Below are positions 5,934-23,533 of a DNA stretch of 24,790 bases, piece by piece. Every line of letters begins with the position of its first letter. Position 1 is the first letter of the stretch. The notes beneath the pieces were generated by a model, which saw only the letters and a list, made by a program, of their open reading frames with translations, searched no databases and was not told the origin of the DNA. Source of the DNA: a virus. Taxonomy: Duplodnaviria; Heunggongvirae; Uroviricota; Caudoviricetes. A program made the translations under genes and the position numbers. The stretch is taken from IMG/VR virus record IMGVR_UViG_2711768033_000002, one strand, 5' to 3'.

Positions 5934-8900
5934 TTAACATTCCCCCATCACGTCGCATATTTAACAGATTGCCCTGCACCCGCTGATCAACCATCCCCAT
6001 AAGTGCTTTTATTGCCTGAGGGCCAATCTCTCCATTCTGGCCGTCATTTTGAATAGTGATTTGGTATACAGGGGCATAGGTAATATCTCCGCCTCCATTA
6101 CCACTTTTACTATTAATAGCTCTGACACCAAGAGAACCATCGGAAGTTCGTGTTAATGGCATAATGGCTTCCGGTCCAGCCTCACCAAAAACACCAGCCC
6201 CTTTTGCAAAAGCAAAAAATTGCGGGGAATCATAAATACCGTTCGAATACGTGCTCAATGACGGAGACTCATAAACACCGCCCTTTGCATTCGGAATAAA
6301 TTTACTAATAGCACTCCCGATAGTTCCTAAAATCCCCCCAGAAGAACTGTTACTAATGCTGTCGAAAATCCCAGTAATTGAAGCCTTTAATGCTATTCGA
6401 CTAAGATCCGAAATCACGGAAGTAGCGAAAGAACGAAAATTTGCCTTGCCTGTCGTGACAAAATCACCCAGCGCATCGGTCATCCCATCAAACATCTGAG
6501 TCGTGGTTGATTTTATCTGCTCACTGATATCCTTAGTGTCATCCAGCCAGTTATTGAATCCCTGGGAGGCACCACTAACCCAGTCTCCTGCCTGAATATC
6601 GAGCTGCTCGTTTTTCTGTCTGACAATTTCTTTTTCCCGTTCCAGAGCATCATTCAGAGCCTGCATTTTCTCTTGAAAAACATGATCTGACATTCCACGG
6701 GATTTATCTGCATAGTCACGTTCAAGTTGCAGACGCTGATTGTTATATCCATGTTCAATCCGCAGTAATTCCTGCTGGCGTTGCTGATTTTTATCGCCAA
6801 CCCCATAACCAGCAATCTGAATATCATACCCCTGCTGACGATTATCAATCGAAGCCTGCAATGAATCACGCCATGCTGTTATTTCGGCGGATTCCTTGAT
6901 TAGCCTGTTATTTTTTTCAATCGCAACATTTTTCTCCATCAACGTGGTTATTTCTTCCCGGTGTAAGAGAAGCGATTTCTGATCCTGGGTTAATTTCGAT
7001 GATGGTCGTGACTCTAGGTCGGCAATCCGCTGACGCCACTTAACCAGTTCCTGTTCAGAGGAACTTAATTTAACGGTCAACTCAGCTTGTGAACTTAGTA
7101 ACGCATTCTGTTGATTCAGATGATCAATCATTCGTTGGGCTGCATCATCAGAATAATCTTTCGCCTTTGGTTGCTTTGGATCTTTATAACGCTCATTTAT
7201 TTGAGCGATAAGATTATTATATTCTTCCTTTGAATACTGATTCTTTAGCTTTTCCAGTTTTGCAAGTTCACTAGCTCTCTGCTGCTCCCGGGTCTGATAT
7301 TGTTTTGAAAAGGCATCTGCTCTCTGTCTGAGTTCAATTCCTTCCTGTTGTCGCTTGTTGTAATCGTTTATTGATGAATTTAGTACGTCCTGAGCAATTT
7401 TTTCTGCTTGAAGTACGCCCAATTGCTGCTTTAATCGTGCCAGCCTTTTATTTTGAGCTCCGCCATCTCCAATGCCACCTAACCCGAAAACTCCGGATCG
7501 GGTATTTTTTTCTATTTCATCAATTTGACGGAGAACATCTGAGATTTTTTGATCAAGGGAGGCCTCACGGCCAATATCCAGCATGGAATCCCATGCCCAT
7601 TTTGCGGAGTCTGCGACAGCTTTCCATGCAGTCTCAAGATAACCAAGATTTTCTTTAATCTGGTTGGTGCGCTGGATCATTGAGGATGAGTATTCTTCTG
7701 TCGCAATGCGGGCGGCCTCCTGCTGGTTCCCTTCATCCTGTAGCGCCTTAATCTGGTTATAAGTCGCAAGTGTCAGAAAATGGTACTGATCATTAAGTTT
7801 TGATATGGCACTGACAGGATCCTTTGCAATTTCATTGAAGTCATTAACCAGTTGTTCGGTTGATATTCCTGTTACTTCGCTCGTTTTTACTATCGCTGTC
7901 GTCACTTGCTCCAGCGAACTGCTCGCTACCTTTCCCGAACGCACAAGCTGATTTAATACTGCCGCCGCAGCACCAGTTGTCGAATCAGCCGCATTCCCGG
8001 CACGTTGAGCTAAATCGCCCAATTGCCCGCTGGTTGTCCCCAACTGATTTCCGGTAAGAATAAGAGATTTATTAAATTCGTCCTGCTCCTGAGAGCCTTT
8101 ATAGTAAGCCAGTCCTAAGACCCCAACGGCTGCTGCGGCCAGGGTAAAAGGATTAATTAATCCCAGCACATAAGAACCTACCCCTTTGATCGCCGGGCCA
8201 ATCCCACCGAACATATCTTTTAGCTGGCCGCCCTGCTGCATTAACACCATAAATGGCGACTGACCAGTGGACAACCCAACAACAATATCCGTCATTTGTG
8301 CAGGCAACATGCGCATAGCAAAAGCCGTTTGTTTTGCCGACATTCCGGTTTTGCTTAATTGTGATTGAGTAACCTCAAGCTCACTCCGCATAGCACGAAG
8401 TTTTCCAGAAAGCTCCTCATACATTTCAGGAGAAAGCATCCCCTTAGCTTTTGCTTCATTGAGCTGTTTCTGTTGTTCTACCAGACGATTAAAAGCAGTT
8501 CCGACAGGATCAAGTTGAGCAATCAGACGTTGCAAAGCAACAACCTGTTCATCATGCGCTTTTGCTGCTTCTCGCTCTGCCTGAGCCTCTCCGGTAAGCT
8601 CTCGCCGTGTTTCCTGTATTTTTCGGCTATAATTCTCAAACTGAGAACCATTTATTTTCCCGGATGCAAACGCAGCATTAAGTTCATCATGCTGTTGTTC
8701 AAGATTTCTTAGCGCCGCAGCCAGAGGGTCGATCTTGTCCAGCATTCTTTGAAAGGCCTGAGCCTGCGCTTCCTGCTGGGCGGCAGCAAGTTTTCCGGCC
8801 TTCTCGGCTTCTCTCTGCGCTTGCGCAACCCCGCTCAATTCCTCTGTGGTTTCATTAAGTTTACGGACAAGAAATTCATATTCTTCTTTATCAATAAGCC

Positions 8901-9159
8901 CTTTATCGAAAAATTTCTTTAATTCAGAATAGCGTCGACCGACAGTATCAATTGCGGCACCAACTGGATCAATAGCTGCTTTTAATTTTGCGAGCGCGTT
9001 CTTCTCATCTTCTGTTGCCTTAGTCACTTTCCCTGCGCTATTTGCAGCAGTTTCCCCAGCCTGCGTCATTTTGACTAATGAGGAGGTCAGATTGTCAGCA
9101 TTATTTTTCGCTCCAGTGCTATCAATAATTATTGCGAGACGCGAGGTTTGCTCTGCCAT
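5926..9159 (-). CDS. Tail tape measure protein
   Basis: 1077 aa; coiled-coil-rich N-terminal half, hydrophobic Gly-rich segment ([18 protein letters not shown]), position between G/GT and M; ATG 9157-9159 preceded by AGGAG; TAA 5926-5928. Confidence 0.9.
8365..8980 (-). repeat. Three diverged tandem repeats of about 65 aa inside the tape measure N-terminal region
   Basis: Translation shows [20 protein letters not shown]...EELSG / [20 protein letters not shown]...RELTG / [20 protein letters not shown]...SELE; DNA coordinates are approximate. Confidence 0.5.
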
Positions 9160-17514: not shown

Positions 17515-18816
17515 TTAAATCCGAAGTGATGTGACTCTTCCGGTCGGTTTGACAATAGGGAATTGCTTAACGATGAAATAACCTCCGGCATCATTCGGGT
17601 GATCATTGCCAGATTTTTTATCAGGCTCCCCCTTATCATCCCAGACCTGTTGCTCCAGAGATTCGGCATATACCGGACAACGCTTCACATTAACTTTATA
17701 GCGACGCTCACCATTGGCATTGCAGAACATTGCATTCATTGAGTTAACGCGATCTTTTACTGGCGGGTTCGAGCTGTTCACCACAACGTTAAAACCTGCC
17801 TGCTTAAGCTGGGCTATATCCGTCGTACTTGCGTTACTTGATTTTCTGGAATCTCCGGAAGCATCTGGATAAATATAAATCTCCCTCACTTTCCGGTAAT
17901 CATGCCCGTCATACAGCCAGAAGCGTTCTTTAATGAGGCGGATCATATCCGGCGTATCGTAGGCATTGATGATTTCAGTTACCGCACATGGAAGCCCCAA
18001 ACGCAGCACATGGACGATTCCCGCCATCTTTCCAACGTTAAAATCCATCCCAATATAAATCGGCTCCCCTGGCTGCTCCACTTCTTCGCAATTATTCAGT
18101 TTCCGGTCAAACTGATGGTAAACAGTACCACTTGTCAGGTTAGTAAACCGTCCTAGAAGATAGGCTTTAATCAGCTCTGGAGGGTATGATTCAAGAAGTG
18201 AAGGAATGTAATCTGCTGGCAGGTTCTTTTCATTATCGAAAGTAGATGCCTGCACCAGACCATACAGTGAGGCCAGCTCTGTTTTTTCACGCACGGCTTT
18301 AACAAACTGCTCGTAGACAAATTTGAATCCTTCCGGCGTGGTTGTAACGTCAATACCGTTGCGAAGTCCATCAATCTTATAACGCATACGCGCAATTATC
18401 TTGCGCCACGCCGTTCTGGCTTTTTCCTTCGGCAAAATGTCCAGTTCATCCACCAGCGCATTACCAATTTTGAAACCGACGATCGTTTGTGGCTTCTCCA
18501 TCGATCTGCAGATAGTGGTTCCCCGATACTGGCGTCCGTAATAAAAGTGAACCTCTTTATTTCCCTCATTAATTTTTACGTTCAATCCCCAGTCAGCAGC
18601 AACTTCTTCCACTGTAGGGTAAAAAATATCGCGAATTTGGGGATACGTTGGCGCAAAATATCCCTGATTTATACCTGGATGCGCCCAAATCCCCTTGCAT
18701 ATGCCGCCACACCCAACCCATGTTTTGCCCGAGCCAAAACCAGCAATATAGGCTTTAAATTTATGGGGCATTGAAAGAAATCGCGCCTGAGGCACATTAA
18801 GCGTCGGAGAGATCAT
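17515..18816 (-). CDS. Terminase large subunit
   Basis: Walker A AGFGSGKTW near the N-terminus; acidic motif IYIYPDASGDS in the C-terminal nuclease half; the ATG at 18814-18816 (MISPTLNV...) lies 8 nt after AAGGAG, while the track start at 18825 is GTG. Confidence 0.9.
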   Translation of the reverse strand: MISPTLNVPQARFLSMPHKFKAYIAGFGSGKTWVGCGGICKGIWAHPGINQGYFAPTYPQIRDIFYPTVEEVAADWGLNVKINEGNKEVHFYYGRQYRGTTICRSMEKPQTIVGFKIGNALVDELDILPKEKARTAWRKIIARMRYKIDGLRNGIDVTTTPEGFKFVYEQFVKAVREKTELASLYGLVQASTFDNEKNLPADYIPSLLESYPPELIKAYLLGRFTNLTSGTVYHQFDRKLNNCEEVEQPGEPIYIGMDFNVGKMAGIVHVLRLGLPCAVTEIINAYDTPDMIRLIKERFWLYDGHDYRKVREIYIYPDASGDSRKSSNASTTDIAQLKQAGFNVVVNSSNPPVKDRVNSMNAMFCNANGERRYKVNVKRCPVYAESLEQQVWDDKGEPDKKSGNDHPNDAGGYFIVKQFPIVKPTGRVTSLRI

Positions 18817-19891
18817 CTTCATCACTCCTTAATCTGGCATCAACCACATTAATATTGATCGCCACAGGCTGGGGATGTTCATTATCCTCCACCGTTTCGA
18901 TCTCTTTGCGCAGCTTCTGGTTCTCTATTCTGCGCCGTTCAATTTCCAGTTCCTGTAGCCGCTTATCTGCACATAATGCCCCGCCAGCAGAAAGCAAACG
19001 CAACAATTCACGCCGGGCGGCAGCCTTATCCTCCAGCAGGATCTCAACACCGTATTTTCCGAGCTTTGACCCTGCATATAATTGCCGCGCATCCCCATCA
19101 AGCAGTGTGGTATCAGCCATATAAAGCTGTCCTGTTCCCTCACCGCAGCACTTCGGGCAATCAGGATTGGGTATGGCGTTATCAACAAAGCCGAGGCCTC
19201 CATATTCCGGCTCGGGTTTACCATCTCTGGAGGCCTGTGCCGCAGCCTTATCGAATTCTGCAATATCACGCCACTGGTAGAGATGATTCTCGCCCCAGCA
19301 ATAACGGCAGTTAACACGGCGAAATTGTGCCAACTGATTGGGGTCGGCCTGGACAATGGCCATCAACTGGCTCACCAGTAAATCCAGGTCTGCGGTATAG
19401 CGTTTCTGGTACTGATTGCGGAAGTAGCTGATAGCACGATAAACCCTGGCATTTCTAAGCATACGGCTGGCGTTGCTGTTAGCTGTCGCACCTTGCCCCT
19501 CATAACCAGCCAGTCGGTATGCCTCTGTCGGCTTTTTCCCCTGAGCAACCAACATGGCGAATTTTGCCTGCTGGTCAGAAATACCGAATTCATCGGGGCA
19601 GAACGAAATTTCTTCCGTGTCCCCCTCAATCAGGAGTGCATCGGATACAGCCTTTTTTTTCTGAGATTTTCCGTTCTGCCTTTGCGCAGTCTGCGCAGTT
19701 TTTTTTCGCGCACTTTTTTGCGCAGTTTTGCGCATTTCTTTCTGCGCATTTTTCGGAGTTTTTTTGATGTAACGACGGGCTGTTGCGTAGTTCAGTCCCC
19801 TTGCTTCACACCATGCCACCGGAGATATACCGGAGCGGGTGTATTCAGCAATATACTCCTGCTGCAACGCCCCCCAGTCCGGTCTGCTCAT
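18797..19891 (-). CDS. Terminase small subunit (extended N-terminal HTH, basic linker, C-terminal Cys cluster)
   Basis: 364 aa; AKFAMLVAQGKKPTEAYRLAGYEGQGATANSNASRMLRNARVYRAI resembles the Terminase_2 HTH signature; additional N-terminal HTH-like segment; CRYC and CPKCC motifs; AGGA RBS 8 nt upstream of the ATG. Confidence 0.72.
   Translation of the reverse strand: MSRPDWGALQQEYIAEYTRSGISPVAWCEARGLNYATARRYIKKTPKNAQKEMRKTAQKSARKKTAQTAQRQNGKSQKKKAVSDALLIEGDTEEISFCPDEFGISDQQAKFAMLVAQGKKPTEAYRLAGYEGQGATANSNASRMLRNARVYRAISYFRNQYQKRYTADLDLLVSQLMAIVQADPNQLAQFRRVNCRYCWGENHLYQWRDIAEFDKAAAQASRDGKPEPEYGGLGFVDNAIPNPDCPKCCGEGTGQLYMADTTLLDGDARQLYAGSKLGKYGVEILLEDKAAARRELLRLLSAGGALCADKRLQELEIERRRIENQKLRKEIETVEDNEHPQPVAININVVDARLRSDEDDLSDA
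19683..19748. repeat. Array of palindromic TGCGCA hexamers separated by T-tracts, inside the 5' part of terS
   Basis: TGCGCA at 19683, 19692, 19719, 19729, 19743, plus CGCGCA at 19707; spacings 9-15 bp; intervening T5-T8 runs. Confidence 0.5.
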
Positions 19892-19894
19892 CAG

Positions 19895-20146
19895 TTAGTC
19901 CTGATTTTTATCCACCCTGAGTAGTTCGCGCAGAGCAAAGGCATCCCCTTTTCTGGCAAGCTTAAACAATGCCGCTCGTAACTCGGCTTCACCTTTCGCT
20001 CTGCCCTTACGGATGGCCGCATAAAAATCTGTCATTGCTTCCCGATTTTCTTTCAGTCGGTTCAGATCAACATCCAGAACGTCAGCGATTTGTTGTGCAG
20101 TCATCCGGCACGCTGCCAGAGACTCGACTTTCGAATACGGAATCAT
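19895..20146 (-). CDS. Small hypothetical protein, possibly DNA-binding
   Basis: 83 aa; ATG 20144-20146 preceded by GGGGGTG at 5 nt; stop is 3 nt before the terS ATG; overlaps the 3' end of the GT-like gene by 65 nt in another frame. Confidence 0.5.
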   Translation of the reverse strand: MIPYSKVESLAACRMTAQQIADVLDVDLNRLKENREAMTDFYAAIRKGRAKGEAELRAALFKLARKGDAFALRELLRVDKNQD

Positions 20147-21014
20147 TTGTCACCCCCATTGATATGCAGGGTGTCTTCTTCCTGTATTTTTCGTGAAGGA
20201 TTTTTACTGCAGCGTTGTTCCAGGTGACCTGATGGTGAATGCGTTTATGGCTGGCACCCATCAGTGAGATTTTTACGCACGACGGCGAATACATGACGGA
20301 GTAAAAACTTTTAACGTAGGTTCCGGAATCCAGATACAGCTCGGTCATTCCGCCGCTGTTTTTCTGCGTCTGTTTCTGCCCTAACTGGACAGCACCGATC
20401 GTCATAAACAATTCACCACAGCGACCGAGATTCGTGTACGTATTCACATCCTCGTTAATGCGCCCCATGAATGAGAACGGTCGATCAACCGAACAGATAA
20501 AGCTGTTCATTGCCTTGCGTTTCACCCACGAAGCATGGCCGCCATTGTCACCAAGAAAATCCCCGCCCTGCGACATAGCGATGGAAAGCGCGGGTATTGA
20601 TTCGTAATACGCCAGCATTTCAGAAAGGATCGCATCCAGTTTCCTTATCGGGAAATAGGCCTGGTCATAGTTGCGATCCACCCGAAACTGGAACTCGTGA
20701 TAATCATCATCGAGCTGAATGAAGTATTTACACCCGACCAGTTTTGCCAGGTCGAAACAGGCATTACGGGCGTAAAAAATTGAGCGGCGATCACCAAAAT
20801 TATCGGCTTCGTCAAAACGACTGGCAATATCGGCTTTGGAAAATACCAGCACCTGTTCACCAAATTCAGCCATGTACTGATGCCGTGTCTTATCTTCATC
20901 ATCAACAACGATAAAAATTTTCCCGGTATAGCCAGCACGACGCAACGTCCGGTAAGTCAGAACTTTGTCCGGTCGCCCGTGAGTCAGAATAAAGGCGCAA
21001 AAATCATCACGCAT
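20082..21014 (-). CDS. Soluble GT-A fold glycosyltransferase candidate
   Basis: 310 aa from ATG 21012-21014 (MRDDFCAFILTHGRPD...), with GGAGGAGGAGGAGGA immediately upstream as SD; the track start at 21038 is an alternative. Motifs KIFIVVDDED and KYFIQLDDDY are spaced like GT-A DxD motifs; no TM segments. Confidence 0.6.
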   Translation of the reverse strand: MRDDFCAFILTHGRPDKVLTYRTLRRAGYTGKIFIVVDDEDKTRHQYMAEFGEQVLVFSKADIASRFDEADNFGDRRSIFYARNACFDLAKLVGCKYFIQLDDDYHEFQFRVDRNYDQAYFPIRKLDAILSEMLAYYESIPALSIAMSQGGDFLGDNGGHASWVKRKAMNSFICSVDRPFSFMGRINEDVNTYTNLGRCGELFMTIGAVQLGQKQTQKNSGGMTELYLDSGTYVKSFYSVMYSPSCVKISLMGASHKRIHHQVTWNNAAVKILHEKYRKKTPCISMGVTNDSVFESRVSGSVPDDCTTNR

Positions 21015-21801
21015 ATTCCTCCTCCTCCTCCCCGCCATGCATGATCTCCACCATGCGCTGCGTCATTCGGACAAATCCATTTTCAATAGCCTGCTGATAA
21101 TCAATGATCACCAGCGCCGACTCCTCGAAAAGGCACTGAATTTCAGCGGGGGCATGAGCGTAATAGTCCGCAATTCTGCTGAAATTAAACACTGTGTGAC
21201 GTTCTGCCGCACACAGGAGGAATTTCTCAATATCAGGATCAAGGGACGCCGAACGTATCCGGCTGATCAGCTCCTGAGTTTTCGTATCGTCGTACAGTTC
21301 ACTGATATCCGGTTTACCGCCCGACGGCTCATAAACAGGCGTATCAATTTTCGTCGTATACGGCTCCTCCTCATTTCCTGTACCGGGCAAAACATCCGTC
21401 AACAGTTCATCAATTTCTGTCGGGATGAAGCCTGTCAGGGAGACATCAAAATCAGCATTGATTAGGTCCGACAGCTCCATCCGCAACAGATCTTCATCCC
21501 AGCCAGCATTCATCGGCAGGCGATTATCTGCCAGGCGGTACGCCTTTTTCTGCTCATCCGTCAGGCCAGACAGAACAATGACCGGAACAGAATCCATTTT
21601 GAGCATTTCAGCCGCCATAACACGACCGTGACCCGCAATAATTTCGCCCTTTTCGTCAATCAGCACCGGATTAGTCCAGCCGAATTGCTTAATACTTTCT
21701 ACCAGTTGTGCCACCTGCTCAGGGCTGTGCGTCCTGGCGTTGTGCGCATACGGTGACAATTCTTGTAATGGGCGATAGACTATCTTTAATTTCTCGCTCA
21801 T
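21007..21801 (-). CDS. ParB-like nuclease-domain protein
   Basis: 264 aa; N-terminal KIVYRPLQELSPYAHNARTHSPEQVAQLVESIKQFGWTNPVLIDEKGEIIAGHGRVMAA fits the ParB/Sulfiredoxin (ParBc) signature including GHGR; acidic C-terminus GGEEEEEYA. Confidence 0.8.
   Translation of the reverse strand: MSEKLKIVYRPLQELSPYAHNARTHSPEQVAQLVESIKQFGWTNPVLIDEKGEIIAGHGRVMAAEMLKMDSVPVIVLSGLTDEQKKAYRLADNRLPMNAGWDEDLLRMELSDLINADFDVSLTGFIPTEIDELLTDVLPGTGNEEEPYTTKIDTPVYEPSGGKPDISELYDDTKTQELISRIRSASLDPDIEKFLLCAAERHTVFNFSRIADYYAHAPAEIQCLFEESALVIIDYQQAIENGFVRMTQRMVEIMHGGEEEEEYA
21017..21031. repeat. (TCC)5 trinucleotide repeat
   Basis: Plus tcctcctcctcctcc; on the minus strand it encodes the EEEEE tail of the ParB-like protein and forms the GGAGG SD (or RRRR codons) for the downstream GT-like gene. 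Confidence 0.6.
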
Positions 21802-21828
21802 ACAGCCTTGCTTTATGAATAAAACGCA

Positions 21829-21852
21829 CCCCAGCAGCCAGTGCTACTGGGG
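21829..21852 (-). terminator. Putative terminator downstream of trkG
   Basis: Minus-strand CCCCAGTAG cactgg CTGCTGGGG (8 of 9 bp paired) followed by TGCGTTTTATTCAT; about 80 nt after the trkG stop. Confidence 0.4.
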
Positions 21853-21938
21853 ACGGAGGGGTTGCTGGTAAAGTTAGGTATTGGATCAATGAGTGAGTCA
21901 ACATAATATTAAACTCACAATTATAAATCAGCCATATA

Positions 21939-23396
21939 TTAGGAGCGCCAAAAAAAACCTGAAAACAATATAATAACAGGATAAATTTCAAGGCGACCAA
22001 GAATCATAGCTATGCACATTAAACATTTTGCAATGTCATTAAGCACTCCGAATGACGATGCAGTAGCCCCAAAACCTAATCCCATATTATTAATACATGC
22101 AGCCACTGTTGCAAATGATGTAAGAAAATCATATCCCATACCATTTAACACCAGTATAAAAAACACCGTGAAGAGAGTATAAAGAAAAAAGAAACTCCAT
22201 ACAGACCTCATTACACGATCTGTAACTATCTTCCCTCCTACATTTACACTCAACAACGCTCTGGGATGAGAAAGCTGATTTATCTCGTGTTTGCTTTGTT
22301 TGAAAAGTATAAGAAATCGAAGTGACTTAATTCCACCACAAGTTGAACCTATACATCCCCCAAAGAAACTTGACAACAGCAAAAACACTATCGTGTGCGT
22401 GGGCCAACTTGCATAATCCTGCGTAGCTAAACCATTATCAGTGAGCATGGAGCTGGCAAGAAAAAACGAATGAATAAAACTTCCATGCAAGTCATACATA
22501 CCTATATGCCAGACCTGGAAAGAGGTAACAATGATCACCCCTAAGGCTATTAACAGAAAGAAACGAAGTTCAATATCTCTGATTAAAGGTTTTATCGTTT
22601 TCCTGCTAATAACAATATACCAAAGAGTGAAGTTGAAAGCCGATAGCAGGGAAAAAGAACCAGCCACCAGCTCAACCAAATAGTTATTAAAATATCCGAT
22701 ACTCTCGCTATGAGTTGAGAAACCACCAAGCGAAACTGTGGAAATCCCGTGACAAATAGCATCAAACAAAGGCATTCCTGCAAGTCTATAACAGACAATA
22801 CAAGCAATACCTAATAAAGAATAAGTTATCCACAGTGTCCGTGACGTATCGGCCAGGCGGGGAGTGAGTTTGTCATCCTTAAATGGCCCCGGCATTTCTG
22901 ACTGATAAAGCTTTGCACCACCAATACCCAATAATGGCAATACAGCAACCGCCAGAACAATAACTCCTAAACCACCTATAAAATTTAACTGTGACCGATA
23001 GTACAAATATGCCCGAGGTAATGAACTAACATCATCAATTACAGTTGCTCCTGTTGTTGTTATTCCAGAAACCCCTTCAAACAGAGCATCAATGAACGTT
23101 AAATTAAGTTCTGAGTCAATCCATAAAGGGAATGCACTAATAACAGAAAACAAAATCCAAAACATTACAATTATAATAAACCCATCACGGGTACGTAATT
23201 GAATGCCAGATTTCTTAGTTGTATACCACGCTCCGCCACCAATGCAAAAAAATATAACGAAAGTTATAAAGAAAACGAACAGGCTTTTTTCTTTATAAAA
23301 CAATGCTACAACCATTGGTGGCAACATTGAAAGACTATAGAGCCAAACCAGGAACCCACACATATGAGTAACAACTCTTACATGAGATGTATTCAT
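21939..23396 (-). CDS. trkG: TrkH/TrkG-family potassium uptake membrane protein
   Basis: 485 aa from ATG 23394-23396 (MNTSHVRVV...); many TM segments; four TrkH-type filter motifs (SGITTTGATV, LGGFSTH, GGCIGSTCGG, NMGLGFG); markedly AT-rich; the prophage context matches the known location of trkG in Rac. Confidence 0.85.
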   Translation of the reverse strand: MNTSHVRVVTHMCGFLVWLYSLSMLPPMVVALFYKEKSLFVFFITFVIFFCIGGGAWYTTKKSGIQLRTRDGFIIIVMFWILFSVISAFPLWIDSELNLTFIDALFEGVSGITTTGATVIDDVSSLPRAYLYYRSQLNFIGGLGVIVLAVAVLPLLGIGGAKLYQSEMPGPFKDDKLTPRLADTSRTLWITYSLLGIACIVCYRLAGMPLFDAICHGISTVSLGGFSTHSESIGYFNNYLVELVAGSFSLLSAFNFTLWYIVISRKTIKPLIRDIELRFFLLIALGVIIVTSFQVWHIGMYDLHGSFIHSFFLASSMLTDNGLATQDYASWPTHTIVFLLLSSFFGGCIGSTCGGIKSLRFLILFKQSKHEINQLSHPRALLSVNVGGKIVTDRVMRSVWSFFFLYTLFTVFFILVLNGMGYDFLTSFATVAACINNMGLGFGATASSFGVLNDIAKCLMCIAMILGRLEIYPVIILFSGFFWRS

Positions 23397-23533
23397 ATCT
23401 AAATATTCTTTCAATTATAACCACCTTGCTGCAATATTATGATTATACTGTATAAAATTTAACTCCTCTTAGATCTTACTTCACTGTTCCTTATGAAACA
23501 ATCATCAAAATGAATCATATTGTAGTTAAGATT
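23397..23533 (-). promoter_or_regulatory. AT-rich putative promoter region for trkG
   Basis: Minus strand has two TATAAT hexamers (cagTATAATcat and ggtTATAATtga) within 50 nt of the trkG ATG; no good -35 match was found, so this is tentative. Confidence 0.3.

Follow-up and report, generated by a model that had tools for sequence, protein, structure and literature searches.

Why would a prophage of Escherichia coli keep a soluble glycosyltransferase next to a ParB-like protein at the threshold of its packaging genes? How a phage fares against restriction, CRISPR, and type IV defenses depends in part on whether its DNA carries sugars, a modification that to our knowledge is understood only for cases in which a hydroxymethylated base is first produced. 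Canonical DNA has no hydroxyl acceptor, and no glycosyltransferase is known to us to act on bases that lack a prior modification. The two genes in question, late genes that overlap in a Rac-type prophage of E. coli, are contained in the stretch of 24,790 nucleotides analyzed here (IMG/VR record IMGVR_UViG_2711768033_000002, hereafter the window). "Solitary" genes for TET-associated glycosyltransferases (TAGT) have been reported in 288 of 753 phage genomes (PMC13216743), and ~16,000 glycosyltransferase contigs without a hydroxylase have been described by Pyle et al. (bioRxiv 10.1101/2023.12.21.572611; Cell Rep 2024), with no explanation offered in either study. It is clear from our results that a large and coherent part of this set is a conserved ParB-TAGT module located beside the terminase, with fusions and glycan-tailoring variants.

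Both genes and their neighbors lie on the minus strand of the window. The full-length ynaK-type ParB-like gene (21007..21801) encodes 264 aa with a pI of 4.46, and the TAGT-family GT-A glycosyltransferase gene follows it (20082..21014, 310 aa). Two ATGs could open the second frame, one at 21014, giving 310 aa beginning MRDDFCAF, and one at 21038, giving 318 aa. Every homologue in the alignments begins MRDDF, which identifies the 310-aa form as the genuine product and rules out the 318-aa start; the overlap is therefore 8 nt rather than 32 nt. These 8 nt (ATGCGTGA, 21007..21014, minus strand) hold the start codon of the glycosyltransferase and the stop codon of the ParB gene. Just upstream, a (GGA)5 tract (21017..21031, minus strand), the only place in the window, whichever strand is read, with four or more GGA units in a row, specifies the EEEEE stretch in the tail of the ParB protein, which terminates ...HGGEEEEEYA before TGA, and also provides the Shine-Dalgarno sequence of the glycosyltransferase, as a GGAGG from the tract stands 5-9 nt 5' of its ATG. 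The initial annotation described the genes as overlapping and sharing this tract; the overlap is real and the tract does serve both genes, but it lies outside the 8 nt that they have in common. The translational coupling it proposed is upheld by the overlap and by the GGAGG before the ATG. An overlap of 4-23 nt is present in 62 of 68 diverse ParB/TAGT pairs, and both genes are under purifying selection, with dN of 0.125 and 0.30 relative to a Klebsiella copy, a comparison in which dS is saturated and for which no dN/dS ratio was therefore computed.

The 310-aa protein, for which no characterized family could at first be named, is placed by profile and fold searches as a soluble GT-A enzyme of Pfam PF20691, the TAGT family. 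It matches profile positions 4-205 of 205 with 121.6 bits (cut-off 27.5; E 5.5e-35), and its PHROG match is phrog_842 (1.4e-103). The top PDB fold matches of its AF2 model (pLDDT 79) are all GT-A enzymes, as the first reading of the motifs had suggested, and the search for a non-glycosyltransferase fold, which would have spoken against that reading, again placed the protein among GT-A glycosyltransferases. The best of these matches is the nucleoside-glycosylating AvpGT, although it is weak (E 9e-5, TM 0.42), glycogenin-type self-glycosylating enzymes are found among the weaker ones, and TAGT-domain proteins rank first in the BFVD. A sequence search of the PDB with the TAGT profile gave no match, and NCBIfam gave none above cut-off. 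Assignment to a defense system was considered and rejected, as PADLOC returned no glycosyltransferase match and its sole ParB match was to the N-terminal part of a methyltransferase model.

Two DxD-type motifs had been read in this protein, IFIVVDDED at residue 33 and YFIQLDDDY at residue 97. The second holds up, its invariant D102-D103-D104 (20703..20711, minus strand) being the classical DxD metal and nucleotide-sugar motif, whereas the first, in which D38 and D41 are conserved, is not the metal-binding one. R14, D41, R83, E188-D189 (within INEDVN), Q217, R258, and H260-H261 are also invariant. Among these, R14, D102-104, and E188-D189 are unchanged across bacterial and archaeal virus homologues and form the R...DDD...ED pattern described for phage GT-A DNA glycosyltransferases (bioRxiv 10.1101/2023.12.21.572611). 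Neither protein of the pair contains a membrane segment, the maximal 19-residue Kyte-Doolittle mean being 1.08 for the glycosyltransferase and 1.25 for the ParB-like protein, in agreement with the initial view that the enzyme is not of the GtrB type. The conserved core spans residues 1-288 (20151..21014, minus strand); the remaining 22 residues (289-310), missing in homologues of other genera and modeled with pLDDT <50, constitute an Escherichia-specific tail that overlaps the next gene.

The ParB-like character of the 264-aa partner, likewise recognized at the outset, is confirmed by Pfam ParB_N (1.2e-6), by phrog_620 (1.5e-90), and by Foldseek, for which the best matches of the AF2 model (pLDDT 71) are PadC, ParB-CDP, and Noc; ParB/Srx-fold kinases such as SerK are among its fold relatives. 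Alignments and Foldseek define an N-terminal domain of the ParB/Srx CTPase fold (residues 1-135; 21397..21801, minus strand), where GHGR, in which G57, G59, and R60 never vary, corresponds in alignment to box II (GERR) of Noc/ParB, and D92-N93 to the E-N of box III. It is followed by a low-confidence linker (137-165) and an all-helical C-terminal domain (170-255), together 21037..21393 on the minus strand. The linker bears the conserved motif YTxKIxxPxYEPxGxxP, and residues 137-155 have pLDDT <50. No HTH DNA-binding domain was recognized in the model or by Foldseek. The protein is conserved over its full length, with 41% identity to archaeal virus HHTV-2 and 32% to Nocardia phage NTR1, and 12 of 68 ParB partners consist of the N-terminal domain only, without linker and C-terminal domain (e.g., in Vibrio phage pv27). 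The same N-terminal domain type is also found fused to DNA methyltransferases (phrog_498, 1.2e-50; PADLOC MTase_II, 2.5e-38). A canonical ParABS partition system was rejected as an explanation, given that the annotated prophage has no parA, the TIGR00180 score of 38.5 bits is under the 58.45 cut-off, the HTH domain is lacking, and positions 18700-22000 contain no convincing parS-like palindrome.

The pair occupies the position originally assigned to it, between trkG and terS. A terminator-like hairpin (10-bp stem with 7 G-C pairs, then TGCGTTTTAT; 21829..21852, minus strand) stands between the trkG stop and the ParB-like start and probably ends the trkG moron transcript, in which case expression of the pair would depend on the antiterminated late transcript alone. 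On the other side, a small basic ORF (19895..20146, minus strand; 83 aa, or 69 aa from ATG 20104 according to PGAP) resembles the internal part of phrog_309 terminase small subunits and probably belongs to packaging; a Klebsiella prophage has an 85-aa equivalent. Directly downstream of it is terS (18797-19891, minus strand), and terL lies at 17515-18825, also on the minus strand. A comparison with ydaY of K-12 had been proposed and was mistaken, as in NZ_CP019944 ydaY denotes a small gene located close to that for the tail tube. The K-12-type ynaK is only an N-terminal fragment of the ParB gene, and E. coli K-12 lacks the pair owing to a deletion, while about one sixth of complete E. coli genomes carry it.

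Beyond E. coli, ParB followed by TAGT is an ancient two-gene module, recognized here for the first time. ParB stands directly upstream of TAGT at 122 of 142 diverse loci (67 of 81 viral and 55 of 61 genomic loci from different species), and a terminase lies at most four genes downstream at 50 of 65 and 34 of 51 loci, drawn from three unrelated TerL families. Genes for PolA, DnaB, primase, and the beta-clamp are among the upstream neighbors. These counts come from a crude ORF caller with purpose-made HMMs, and the Pfam neighbor summaries cover the 25 most frequent families. Among the hosts are Enterobacteria, Lactobacillus, Nocardia, Vibrio, Bacteroidota, and haloarchaea, and the carriers range from Lactobacillus delbrueckii phage c5 (31.8-kb, with no annotated integrase) to 191-kb Vibrio phages. 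The pair spans ~500 clusters of 50% identity at E<=1e-30 and retains 40-47% identity when viruses that infect Gram-negative bacteria, Gram-positive bacteria, actinobacteria, and archaea are compared. Full-length ParB-TAGT fusions (P0244, P0245, and P0246) match the two window proteins over their entire lengths, ParB-MTase takes the place of a free ParB at one locus (L098), and TAGT itself occurs in arrays of 2-4 tandem copies at some loci or fused to methyltransferase, sulfotransferase, or P-loop domains, with P-loop kinase-like and radical SAM partners at some loci. A gene of ~280 aa between ParB and TAGT at several loci, considered as a candidate dioxygenase, proved to be a second TAGT copy.

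If the enzyme acted as its better known relatives do, a source of hydroxymethylated bases would be expected close by. No TET/JBP, thymidylate-synthase-like, or other hydroxymethylase gene recurs beside the module in ~160 loci, a hunt that took in the 40 largest neighbor clusters, then 149 and 92 further neighbors, and the unassigned ORFs of c5, and in which two summary scans covered only the 25 commonest families, so that a rare hydroxylase could escape. The whole genomes of phage c5 (31.8-kb) and phi jlb1 (38.3-kb) contain no recognizable hydroxymethylase, and the sole unassigned c5 ORF of at least 200 aa has no Pfam match. Neither a hydroxymethylase nor TET/JBP was found in the window or the annotated Rac-type prophage, and genes for dCMP hydroxymethylase and alpha-/beta-GT are absent from the prophage and from the pair-bearing small phages. 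In the literature on HHTV-2, Lactobacillus delbrueckii phages, and Stenotrophomonas phage DLP3, we found no DNA-modification data for module carriers, nor did we find a report of modified DNA in any phage carrying the module. DLP3 has restriction-resistant DNA and encodes a GT-B enzyme with ParB and TerL, the glycosyltransferase being of a different family. A literature check on whether the pair is already a characterized packaging accessory turned up no such paper, in line with the initial annotation.

Comparison with the closest known systems places the pair near several DNA-modifying enzymes without equating it with any. The beta-glucosyl-HMC-alpha-glucosyltransferase of T2/T6 (PMC13216743) shares Pfam PF20691, the GT-A fold, the DDD motif, and a single PHROG, 842; however, tblastn against T2 or T6 gave no match at E<=1e-5, and the T-even-type enzyme of Klebsiella phage PKO111 is only ~12% identical to the window protein and ranks 22 in the BFVD. 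The T-even enzyme places the second glucose on glucosyl-5hmC in company with alpha-/beta-GT and dCMP hydroxymethylase and without a ParB, whereas the window pair has no hmC pathway and its enzyme has ParB as an obligate partner. The label "beta-glucosyl-HMC-alpha-glucosyltransferase" on phage records is an over-transfer. The TET/5mYOX-associated GT-A enzymes of phages and JGT, the base-J glucosyltransferase of trypanosomes (Pyle et al., bioRxiv 10.1101/2023.12.21.572611; Cell Rep 2024), have the same fold and R...DDD...ED pattern, and clusters with sequential glycosyltransferases and sugar-tailoring enzymes are known among them. The phage enzymes act on 5hmC, which a neighboring methyltransferase and TET produce, and JGT acts on 5hmU, but the Rac-type clade has no such neighbor. 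The window protein exceeds the gathering score of PF20691 and has its fold and active-site pattern but not the association with TET/JBP or a hydroxymethylase. GREB1, a large animal protein with a TAGT-like glycosyltransferase domain that is reported to O-GlcNAcylate ER-alpha (PMC7968844), shares the TAGT/GREB1-related designation in PGAP and UniRef names, and PGAP calls some E. coli copies "GREB1-related protein," but it has neither ParB nor viral context. On the ParB side, phage ParB-N6/N4 DNA methyltransferase fusions (phrog_498, PADLOC MTase_II, PMC12704722) have a close N-terminal ParB and lie in prophage late regions; in these the methyltransferase is covalently attached, whereas the window ParB has its own linker and helical C-terminal domain. 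By analogy, the best mechanistic counterpart is the 5mYOX176/ParB176 pair (PMC13229309, PNAS 2026), compared here by description only. In that system, as here, an orphan ParB composed of nucleotide-binding and C-terminal domains, with none for binding DNA, is co-inherited with, and adjoins, an enzyme that modifies replicated DNA, or here would do so, often near the terminase, and a ParB176-type partner is required for the phage thymine dioxygenase to act on dsDNA. The partner of the window ParB differs in being a GT-A glycosyltransferase and not an Fe/2OG dioxygenase.

The explanation we consider best, to which we would give an even chance, is that the pair constitutes a late DNA-glycosylating enzyme whose ParB partner loads or activates the transferase on dsDNA before packaging; the acceptor is probably neither 5hmC nor 5hmU. 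Both genes would form one functional unit made late from the terminase transcript, with the 310-aa protein as a nucleotide-sugar-dependent GT-A transferase of the TAGT family and the 264-aa protein as a ParB-type nucleotide-binding module without its own DNA-binding domain. ParB would bind the transferase, to which it is fused in some viruses, and, like a ParB/KorB clamp, would load it or hold it on double-stranded phage DNA, such that the replicated genome would be sugar-modified before or during packaging and might thereby be protected from restriction. The extra TAGT copies and the fused methyl-, sulfo-, or P-loop domains of relatives may elaborate the sugar. As the pair is 40-47% identical across such unlike hosts, its acceptor should be common to all of them, and, judged from these sequence comparisons, DNA fits such a universal acceptor while envelope polymers do not. 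TAGT activity on DNA is described for the T2/T6 second glucosyltransferase (PMC13216743), and DNA is also the substrate of the 5hmC-glycosylating phage GT-A enzymes and JGT (10.1101/2023.12.21.572611). Iyer et al. 2013 defined the TAGT family and, as quoted in PMC8256090, suggested that modification is steered by ParB while packaging is under way. Against a DNA acceptor, Pyle et al. (10.1101/2023.12.21.572611) consider a glycosyltransferase less likely to have DNA as its substrate when the contig lacks 5mYOX or ThyS, and the ParB partner is very acidic (pI 4.46) and lacks a recognizable DNA-binding domain. A bolder form of the proposal, which we advance tentatively and regard as rather unlikely, is that ParB-TAGT is self-sufficient and attaches sugar directly to non-hydroxymethylated DNA, where a canonical base could receive it on an exocyclic amine or elsewhere, with ParB as a nucleotide-gated clamp that delivers the enzyme along the genome shortly before packaging.

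An unlikely alternative is that the acceptor is a protein, which could be involved in packaging, belong to the virion, come from the host, or be the ParB partner, e.g., at its Tyr/Ser-rich linker (YTxKIxxPxYEPSG), with ParB serving as substrate, scaffold, or nucleotide-gated regulator. The TAGT-like domain of GREB1 O-GlcNAcylates ER-alpha (PMC7968844), glycosyltransferase and O-methyltransferase genes among the structural genes of Cluster O mycobacteriophages were proposed as capsid modifiers (PMC4351075), and the module adjoins structural and packaging genes. Moreover, there is no evident acceptor in DNA, the linker motif shows strong conservation in spite of being modeled as disordered, and glycogenin-type enzymes appear among the weaker fold matches. 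However, the neighboring terminase, portal, and capsid proteins belong to unrelated families across loci, so that no constant protein acceptor exists except ParB, of which 12 of 68 lack the linker and C-terminal domain, and the N-terminal domain type of ParB is one attached to DNA-modifying enzymes. Quite improbable, in our estimation, is a conventional TAGT that needs DNA with 5-hydroxymethyl-pyrimidine (or its glucosylated form) and that in small phages is either inactive cargo or relies on a hydroxylase from elsewhere, be it a divergent unrecognized enzyme or a co-infecting element. Membership in PF20691 is consistent with this, as is the finding that ParB, glycosyltransferase, and terminase genes are the commonest neighbors of phage 5mYOX genes, of which thousands of relatives are missed by the Pfam TET/JBP model (PMC13229309), and the P-loop kinase-like and radical SAM partners recall 5hmU hypermodification pathways. 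Yet most loci have nothing between or beside ParB and TAGT, whole genomes of 31.8-kb and 38.3-kb have no candidate hydroxylase, and inactive cargo is hard to reconcile with strong purifying selection and ~500 clusters of 50% identity.

Least probable is that the enzyme decorates an envelope polymer or a small molecule, as in the seroconversion or exclusion exerted by TarP or Gtr, or that ParB makes an activated donor, the link to DNA being incidental. TarP, a prophage wall-teichoic-acid GlcNAc-transferase, was the best PDB match of the phage GT-A enzymes of Pyle et al., the weak best match here glycosylates nucleosides, and the ParB/Srx fold includes kinases such as SerK. Nevertheless, the protein is soluble, Gtr or Wzx partner genes are absent, PADLOC gave no glycosyltransferase match, and expression in the lysogen is unlikely because the terminator-like hairpin separates the pair from the trkG moron. 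The module is also found in phage c5, which has no annotated integrase, in 191-kb Vibrio phages, and in hosts with entirely different envelopes, archaea included. A GtrB- or TarP-type envelope enzyme was rejected on these grounds: the lack of a hydrophobic segment and of partner genes, the hairpin upstream, and the diversity of host envelopes.

Many E. coli strains carry the pair in their Rac prophage, and this has practical implications as well, as the deletion in K-12 provides a clean background for expression tests. Should the acceptor be a protein, the module would represent a new kind of ParB-regulated glycosylation. Should it be DNA, as we favor, ParB activators would be extended from dioxygenases to glycosyltransferases, perhaps with new DNA chemistry. 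If the sugar is indeed placed on canonical DNA, this would constitute a new chemical class of DNA modification, and one that would be widespread in the tailed viruses of bacteria and archaea.

The ParB-like gene of 264 codons (21007-21801) and the 310-codon gene that follows it (20082-21014), both on the minus strand, constitute a conserved, mobile two-gene module, ParB-TAGT, whose second member is a TET-associated glycosyltransferase (TAGT). The initial annotation could name no characterized family for the 310-residue protein, but it matches Pfam PF20691 over the whole model (E 5.5e-35), as well as PHROG 842 (1.4e-103). Its assignment to the GT-A glycosyltransferases holds, as strands and helices alternate in the core of its AlphaFold2 model (pLDDT 79) in the manner of a GT-A enzyme and its leading PDB matches are all GT-A transferases. 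TAGT-domain proteins lead its matches among viral structures, and a T-even-type beta-glucosyl-HMC-alpha-glucosyltransferase (12% identity) comes no higher than 22nd. Comparison of E. coli with Lactobacillus, Nocardia, Vibrio, and haloarchaeal viruses gives a set of invariant residues that includes R14, D41, R83, D102-D103-D104, E188-D189, Q217, R258, and H260-H261, in agreement with the R...DDD...ED pattern of phage DNA-glycosylating GT-A enzymes and the trypanosome base-J glucosyltransferase (bioRxiv 10.1101/2023.12.21.572611). Two DxD-type motifs had been proposed; given this match, the second is the real one, while the first marks another acidic position, also conserved. With a pI of 8.0-8.6 the transferase is mildly basic, and neither protein of the pair contains a hydrophobic segment, as had been surmised for the transferase. 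The Escherichia copy carries a 22-residue C-terminal tail (20082-20150) that overlaps the start of the next ORF, is modeled at pLDDT <50, and is missing from homologues of other genera (~288 aa); it is more likely a product of read-through than an extension with a function.

The upstream protein is indeed ParB-like. Residues 1-135 form a ParB/Srx CTPase-fold domain with Foldseek matches to PadC, ParB-CDP, and Noc; in the alignment its GHGR corresponds to box II (GERR) of Noc/ParB, with R60 invariant, and D92-N93 to the box III E-N. Phage DNA methyltransferases carry fused domains of the same type as this N-terminal one (phrog_498, 1.2e-50; PADLOC MTase_II, 2.5e-38). Helices make up the C-terminal domain; the 264-residue protein has no recognizable HTH DNA-binding domain and is highly acidic overall (pI 4.46). 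The linker after residue 135 is of low confidence in the model yet contains a strongly conserved motif, YTxKIxxPxYEPxGxxP, which hardly varies between E. coli and an archaeal virus although the linker (within 21037-21393, residues 137-255) is predicted to be disordered. In this the motif resembles a short peptide that serves for docking or as a substrate, and a clamp model does not account for it. In a RefSeq genome 100% identical over the segment, PGAP calls only a 258-bp 'ynaK' pseudogene fragment 'missing C-terminus' (21745-22002 of locus L001) and leaves the remainder of the intact ORF (window 21007-21801) without annotation, apparently because a truncated K-12 protein served as the reference. 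K-12 ydaY, a small gene close to that of the tail tube, is distinct from the glycosyltransferase gene and was rejected as its counterpart.

The module is among the late genes of an E. coli lambdoid prophage of the Rac type, whose late region makes up the window. Around the pair, a segment of 2.15 kb is 100% identical to many E. coli chromosomes and is matched in 1610 of 5426 complete genomes, with at least 80% of it covered in 867 of the 1610. Gene order on the minus strand runs from the lysis genes through trkG (21939-23414), the pair, and a small ORF of 83 codons (19895-20146) to terS (18797-19891) and terL (17515-18825). Directly 3' of trkG is a strong terminator-like hairpin (21829-21852), as would fit a trkG moron that entered the late operon and is transcribed on its own. 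Because of this hairpin, expression of the pair most likely depends solely on the antiterminated late transcript, which also carries the terminase genes. At the junction, ATGCATGGCGGGGAGGAGGAGGAGGAATATGCGTGATGAT, the ParB gene ends ...GGEEEEEYA-TGA and the TAGT gene starts at the ATG inside AATATGCGTGA, so that the genes overlap by 8 nt and share, as the initial annotation noted, a (GGA)5 tract. This run (21017-21031), the only one in the window, both encodes the ParB acidic tail and serves as the Shine-Dalgarno sequence of the TAGT gene. An upstream ATG giving a 318-aa form was rejected, since every homologue begins MRDDF. The small ORF (69 aa as annotated) encodes a basic protein whose sole match is to an internal stretch (positions 145-218 of 319) of phrog_309 terminase small subunits, and in a Klebsiella prophage the corresponding place (8867-9124 of locus L002) is taken by an 85-aa equivalent; the protein may be a packaging subunit of its own that recognizes DNA. 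Three close copies of TTTTGCGCAKTT, at spacings of 10 and 14 nt (19716-19751), fall in the lysine- and alanine-rich coding part of terS, toward its 5' end, and recall the pac-site repeats within terS genes of other phages.

Homologues of each protein number in the thousands, and those of TAGT form 1330 clusters at 50% identity, of which 497 have E<=1e-30. The order ParB, TAGT, terminase recurs among phages with unrelated terminase, portal, and capsid genes: one Klebsiella prophage, two metagenomic phages, Lactobacillus phage phi jlb1, Nocardia phage NTR1, 191-kb Vibrio phages, and the archaeal virus HHTV-2, whose ParB is 41% identical to that of E. coli over its full length. The order is also that of Lactobacillus delbrueckii phage c5, in which the pair is ORF1 and ORF2, immediately after the cos site. 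A census, made with a basic ORF caller and with HMMs derived from alignments A2 and A3, covered 80 diverse IMG/VR loci and 80 species genomes from many phyla. ParB lay directly upstream of TAGT in 67/81 of the IMG/VR set (a total that takes in a few isolate and metagenome loci) and in 55/61 of the species genomes, and its stop overlapped the TAGT start by 4-23 nt in 62 of 68 cases, counted in the IMG/VR set only. TerL followed within four genes in 50/65 and 34/51, respectively, which are lower bounds because the detection models cover three TerL families only. Relative to the Klebsiella copy, synonymous sites are saturated, against a dN of 0.125 (TAGT) and 0.30 (ParB), so that purifying selection acts on both genes. 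Upstream, the pair typically borders on the last genes of a replication module, such as PolA, DnaB, primase, and beta-clamp genes. In several unrelated loci, a DNA polymerase III beta-clamp gene directly adjoins the module (L099, 6476-7588; five neighbors among L178-L257); T4 alpha-glucosyltransferase has been suggested, as PMC13216743 relates, to act when associated with the T4 replisome.

The module also varies in composition. One ParB precedes two TAGT paralogues in several metagenomic-phage loci (L107, L135, L138, L139, L168, and L147) and four in tandem in another (L166, 5794-9703), which suggests stepwise assembly of an oligosaccharide. Full ParB-TAGT fusions (locus L122; database proteins P0244, P0245, and P0246, with 19, 4, and 19 member sequences) can be aligned with the two window proteins over their entire lengths. 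There are also TAGT-TAGT fusions and fusions of TAGT to a SAM methyltransferase, a sulfotransferase, or a Walker-A P-loop domain, the last on sub-threshold Pfam matches only. Such fusion and variant homologues (P0368, P0371, P0406, P0390, P0426, P0435, P0329, and P0339; L175, 7419-8378; L147, 8658-9614) are 45-53% identical to the glycosyltransferase where they are among the matches listed. A radical SAM gene lies immediately 3' of TAGT in two loci, and NDP-sugar enzymes are present in a few. In the three variant loci examined (L173, L175, and L176), a ParB, free or fused, or a ParB-sized gene precedes and terminase follows. Many E. coli proteins match the first 150-275 TAGT residues at 97-99% and then continue into unrelated sequence (P0004-P0045, P0361, and P0376), including tail-fiber or other phage domains (PF09327, PF02413, PF03335, PF18906, and PF12421), and in one genome (record H1) IS1 is inserted in the TAGT gene (window 20082-21014). 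This suggests recurrent deletion or rearrangement end-points inside the gene in decaying Rac prophages.

TAGT enzymes take their name from their association with TET/JBP dioxygenases. Characterized members act on 5hmC, 5hmU, or glucosyl-5hmC in DNA (PMC13216743; bioRxiv 10.1101/2023.12.21.572611). The protein described here belongs to the family by sequence, fold, and active-site pattern but lacks the defining genomic association with a hydroxylase: no gene making a hydroxymethylated base was found in the annotated Rac-type prophage, in the complete c5 (31.8-kb) or phi jlb1 (38.3-kb) genomes, or among the recurrent neighbors of ~160 loci. A conventional hydroxymethyl-dependent enzyme whose partner is hidden or missing is improbable. 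Phage records H40-H61 (e.g., NC_019449, NC_021340, and NC_024206) name the gene 'beta-glucosyl-HMC-alpha-glucosyltransferase' though these phages have no hydroxymethylcytosine pathway. The name is propagated from PHROG 842 and, with no such gene found in the places searched, is an over-transfer.

The obligate pairing, translational coupling, fusions, and ParB forms cut to the N-terminal domain alone point to a single unit in which ParB serves the enzyme. The best analogue, in mechanism and architecture rather than enzyme family, is a subclass of phage thymine dioxygenases that requires a cognate orphan ParB for action on double-stranded DNA; this ParB has a nucleotide-binding and a C-terminal domain without the DNA-binding domain, whose site in canonical ParB is occupied by the dioxygenase in structure predictions (PMC13229309, 2026). 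Aravind and co-workers, as quoted in PMC8256090, had earlier proposed that ParB proteins guide modification enzymes to DNA during packaging. We favor DNA as the TAGT target because DNA methyltransferases carry this type of ParB domain as a fusion, the module is placed between replication and packaging genes, and it is kept across hosts with wholly different envelopes and proteomes. The reading we therefore favor, at about an even chance, is a late-acting glycosyltransferase that ParB would load or activate on replicated phage DNA, with glycosylation preceding packaging and, in relatives, extra TAGTs and tailoring domains building larger glycans. A protein acceptor, which might be ParB's own conserved linker, is unlikely, and an envelope or small-molecule acceptor very improbable. 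The weak point of this DNA-glycosylation model is chemical, because ordinary DNA has no hydroxyl acceptor and we know of no precedent for glycosylation of canonical bases.

Many 'solitary' TAGT genes (PMC13216743) and GT-A contigs without a 5-methylpyrimidine dioxygenase or thymidylate-synthase-like gene (Pyle et al., bioRxiv 10.1101/2023.12.21.572611) have been recorded and left unexplained, and no paper describing or testing the ParB-TAGT module itself was found in the literature searched. ParB-TAGT is a real, widespread, uncharacterized module that poses a testable biochemical question, and the best-studied bacterium carries a copy of it in a prophage.
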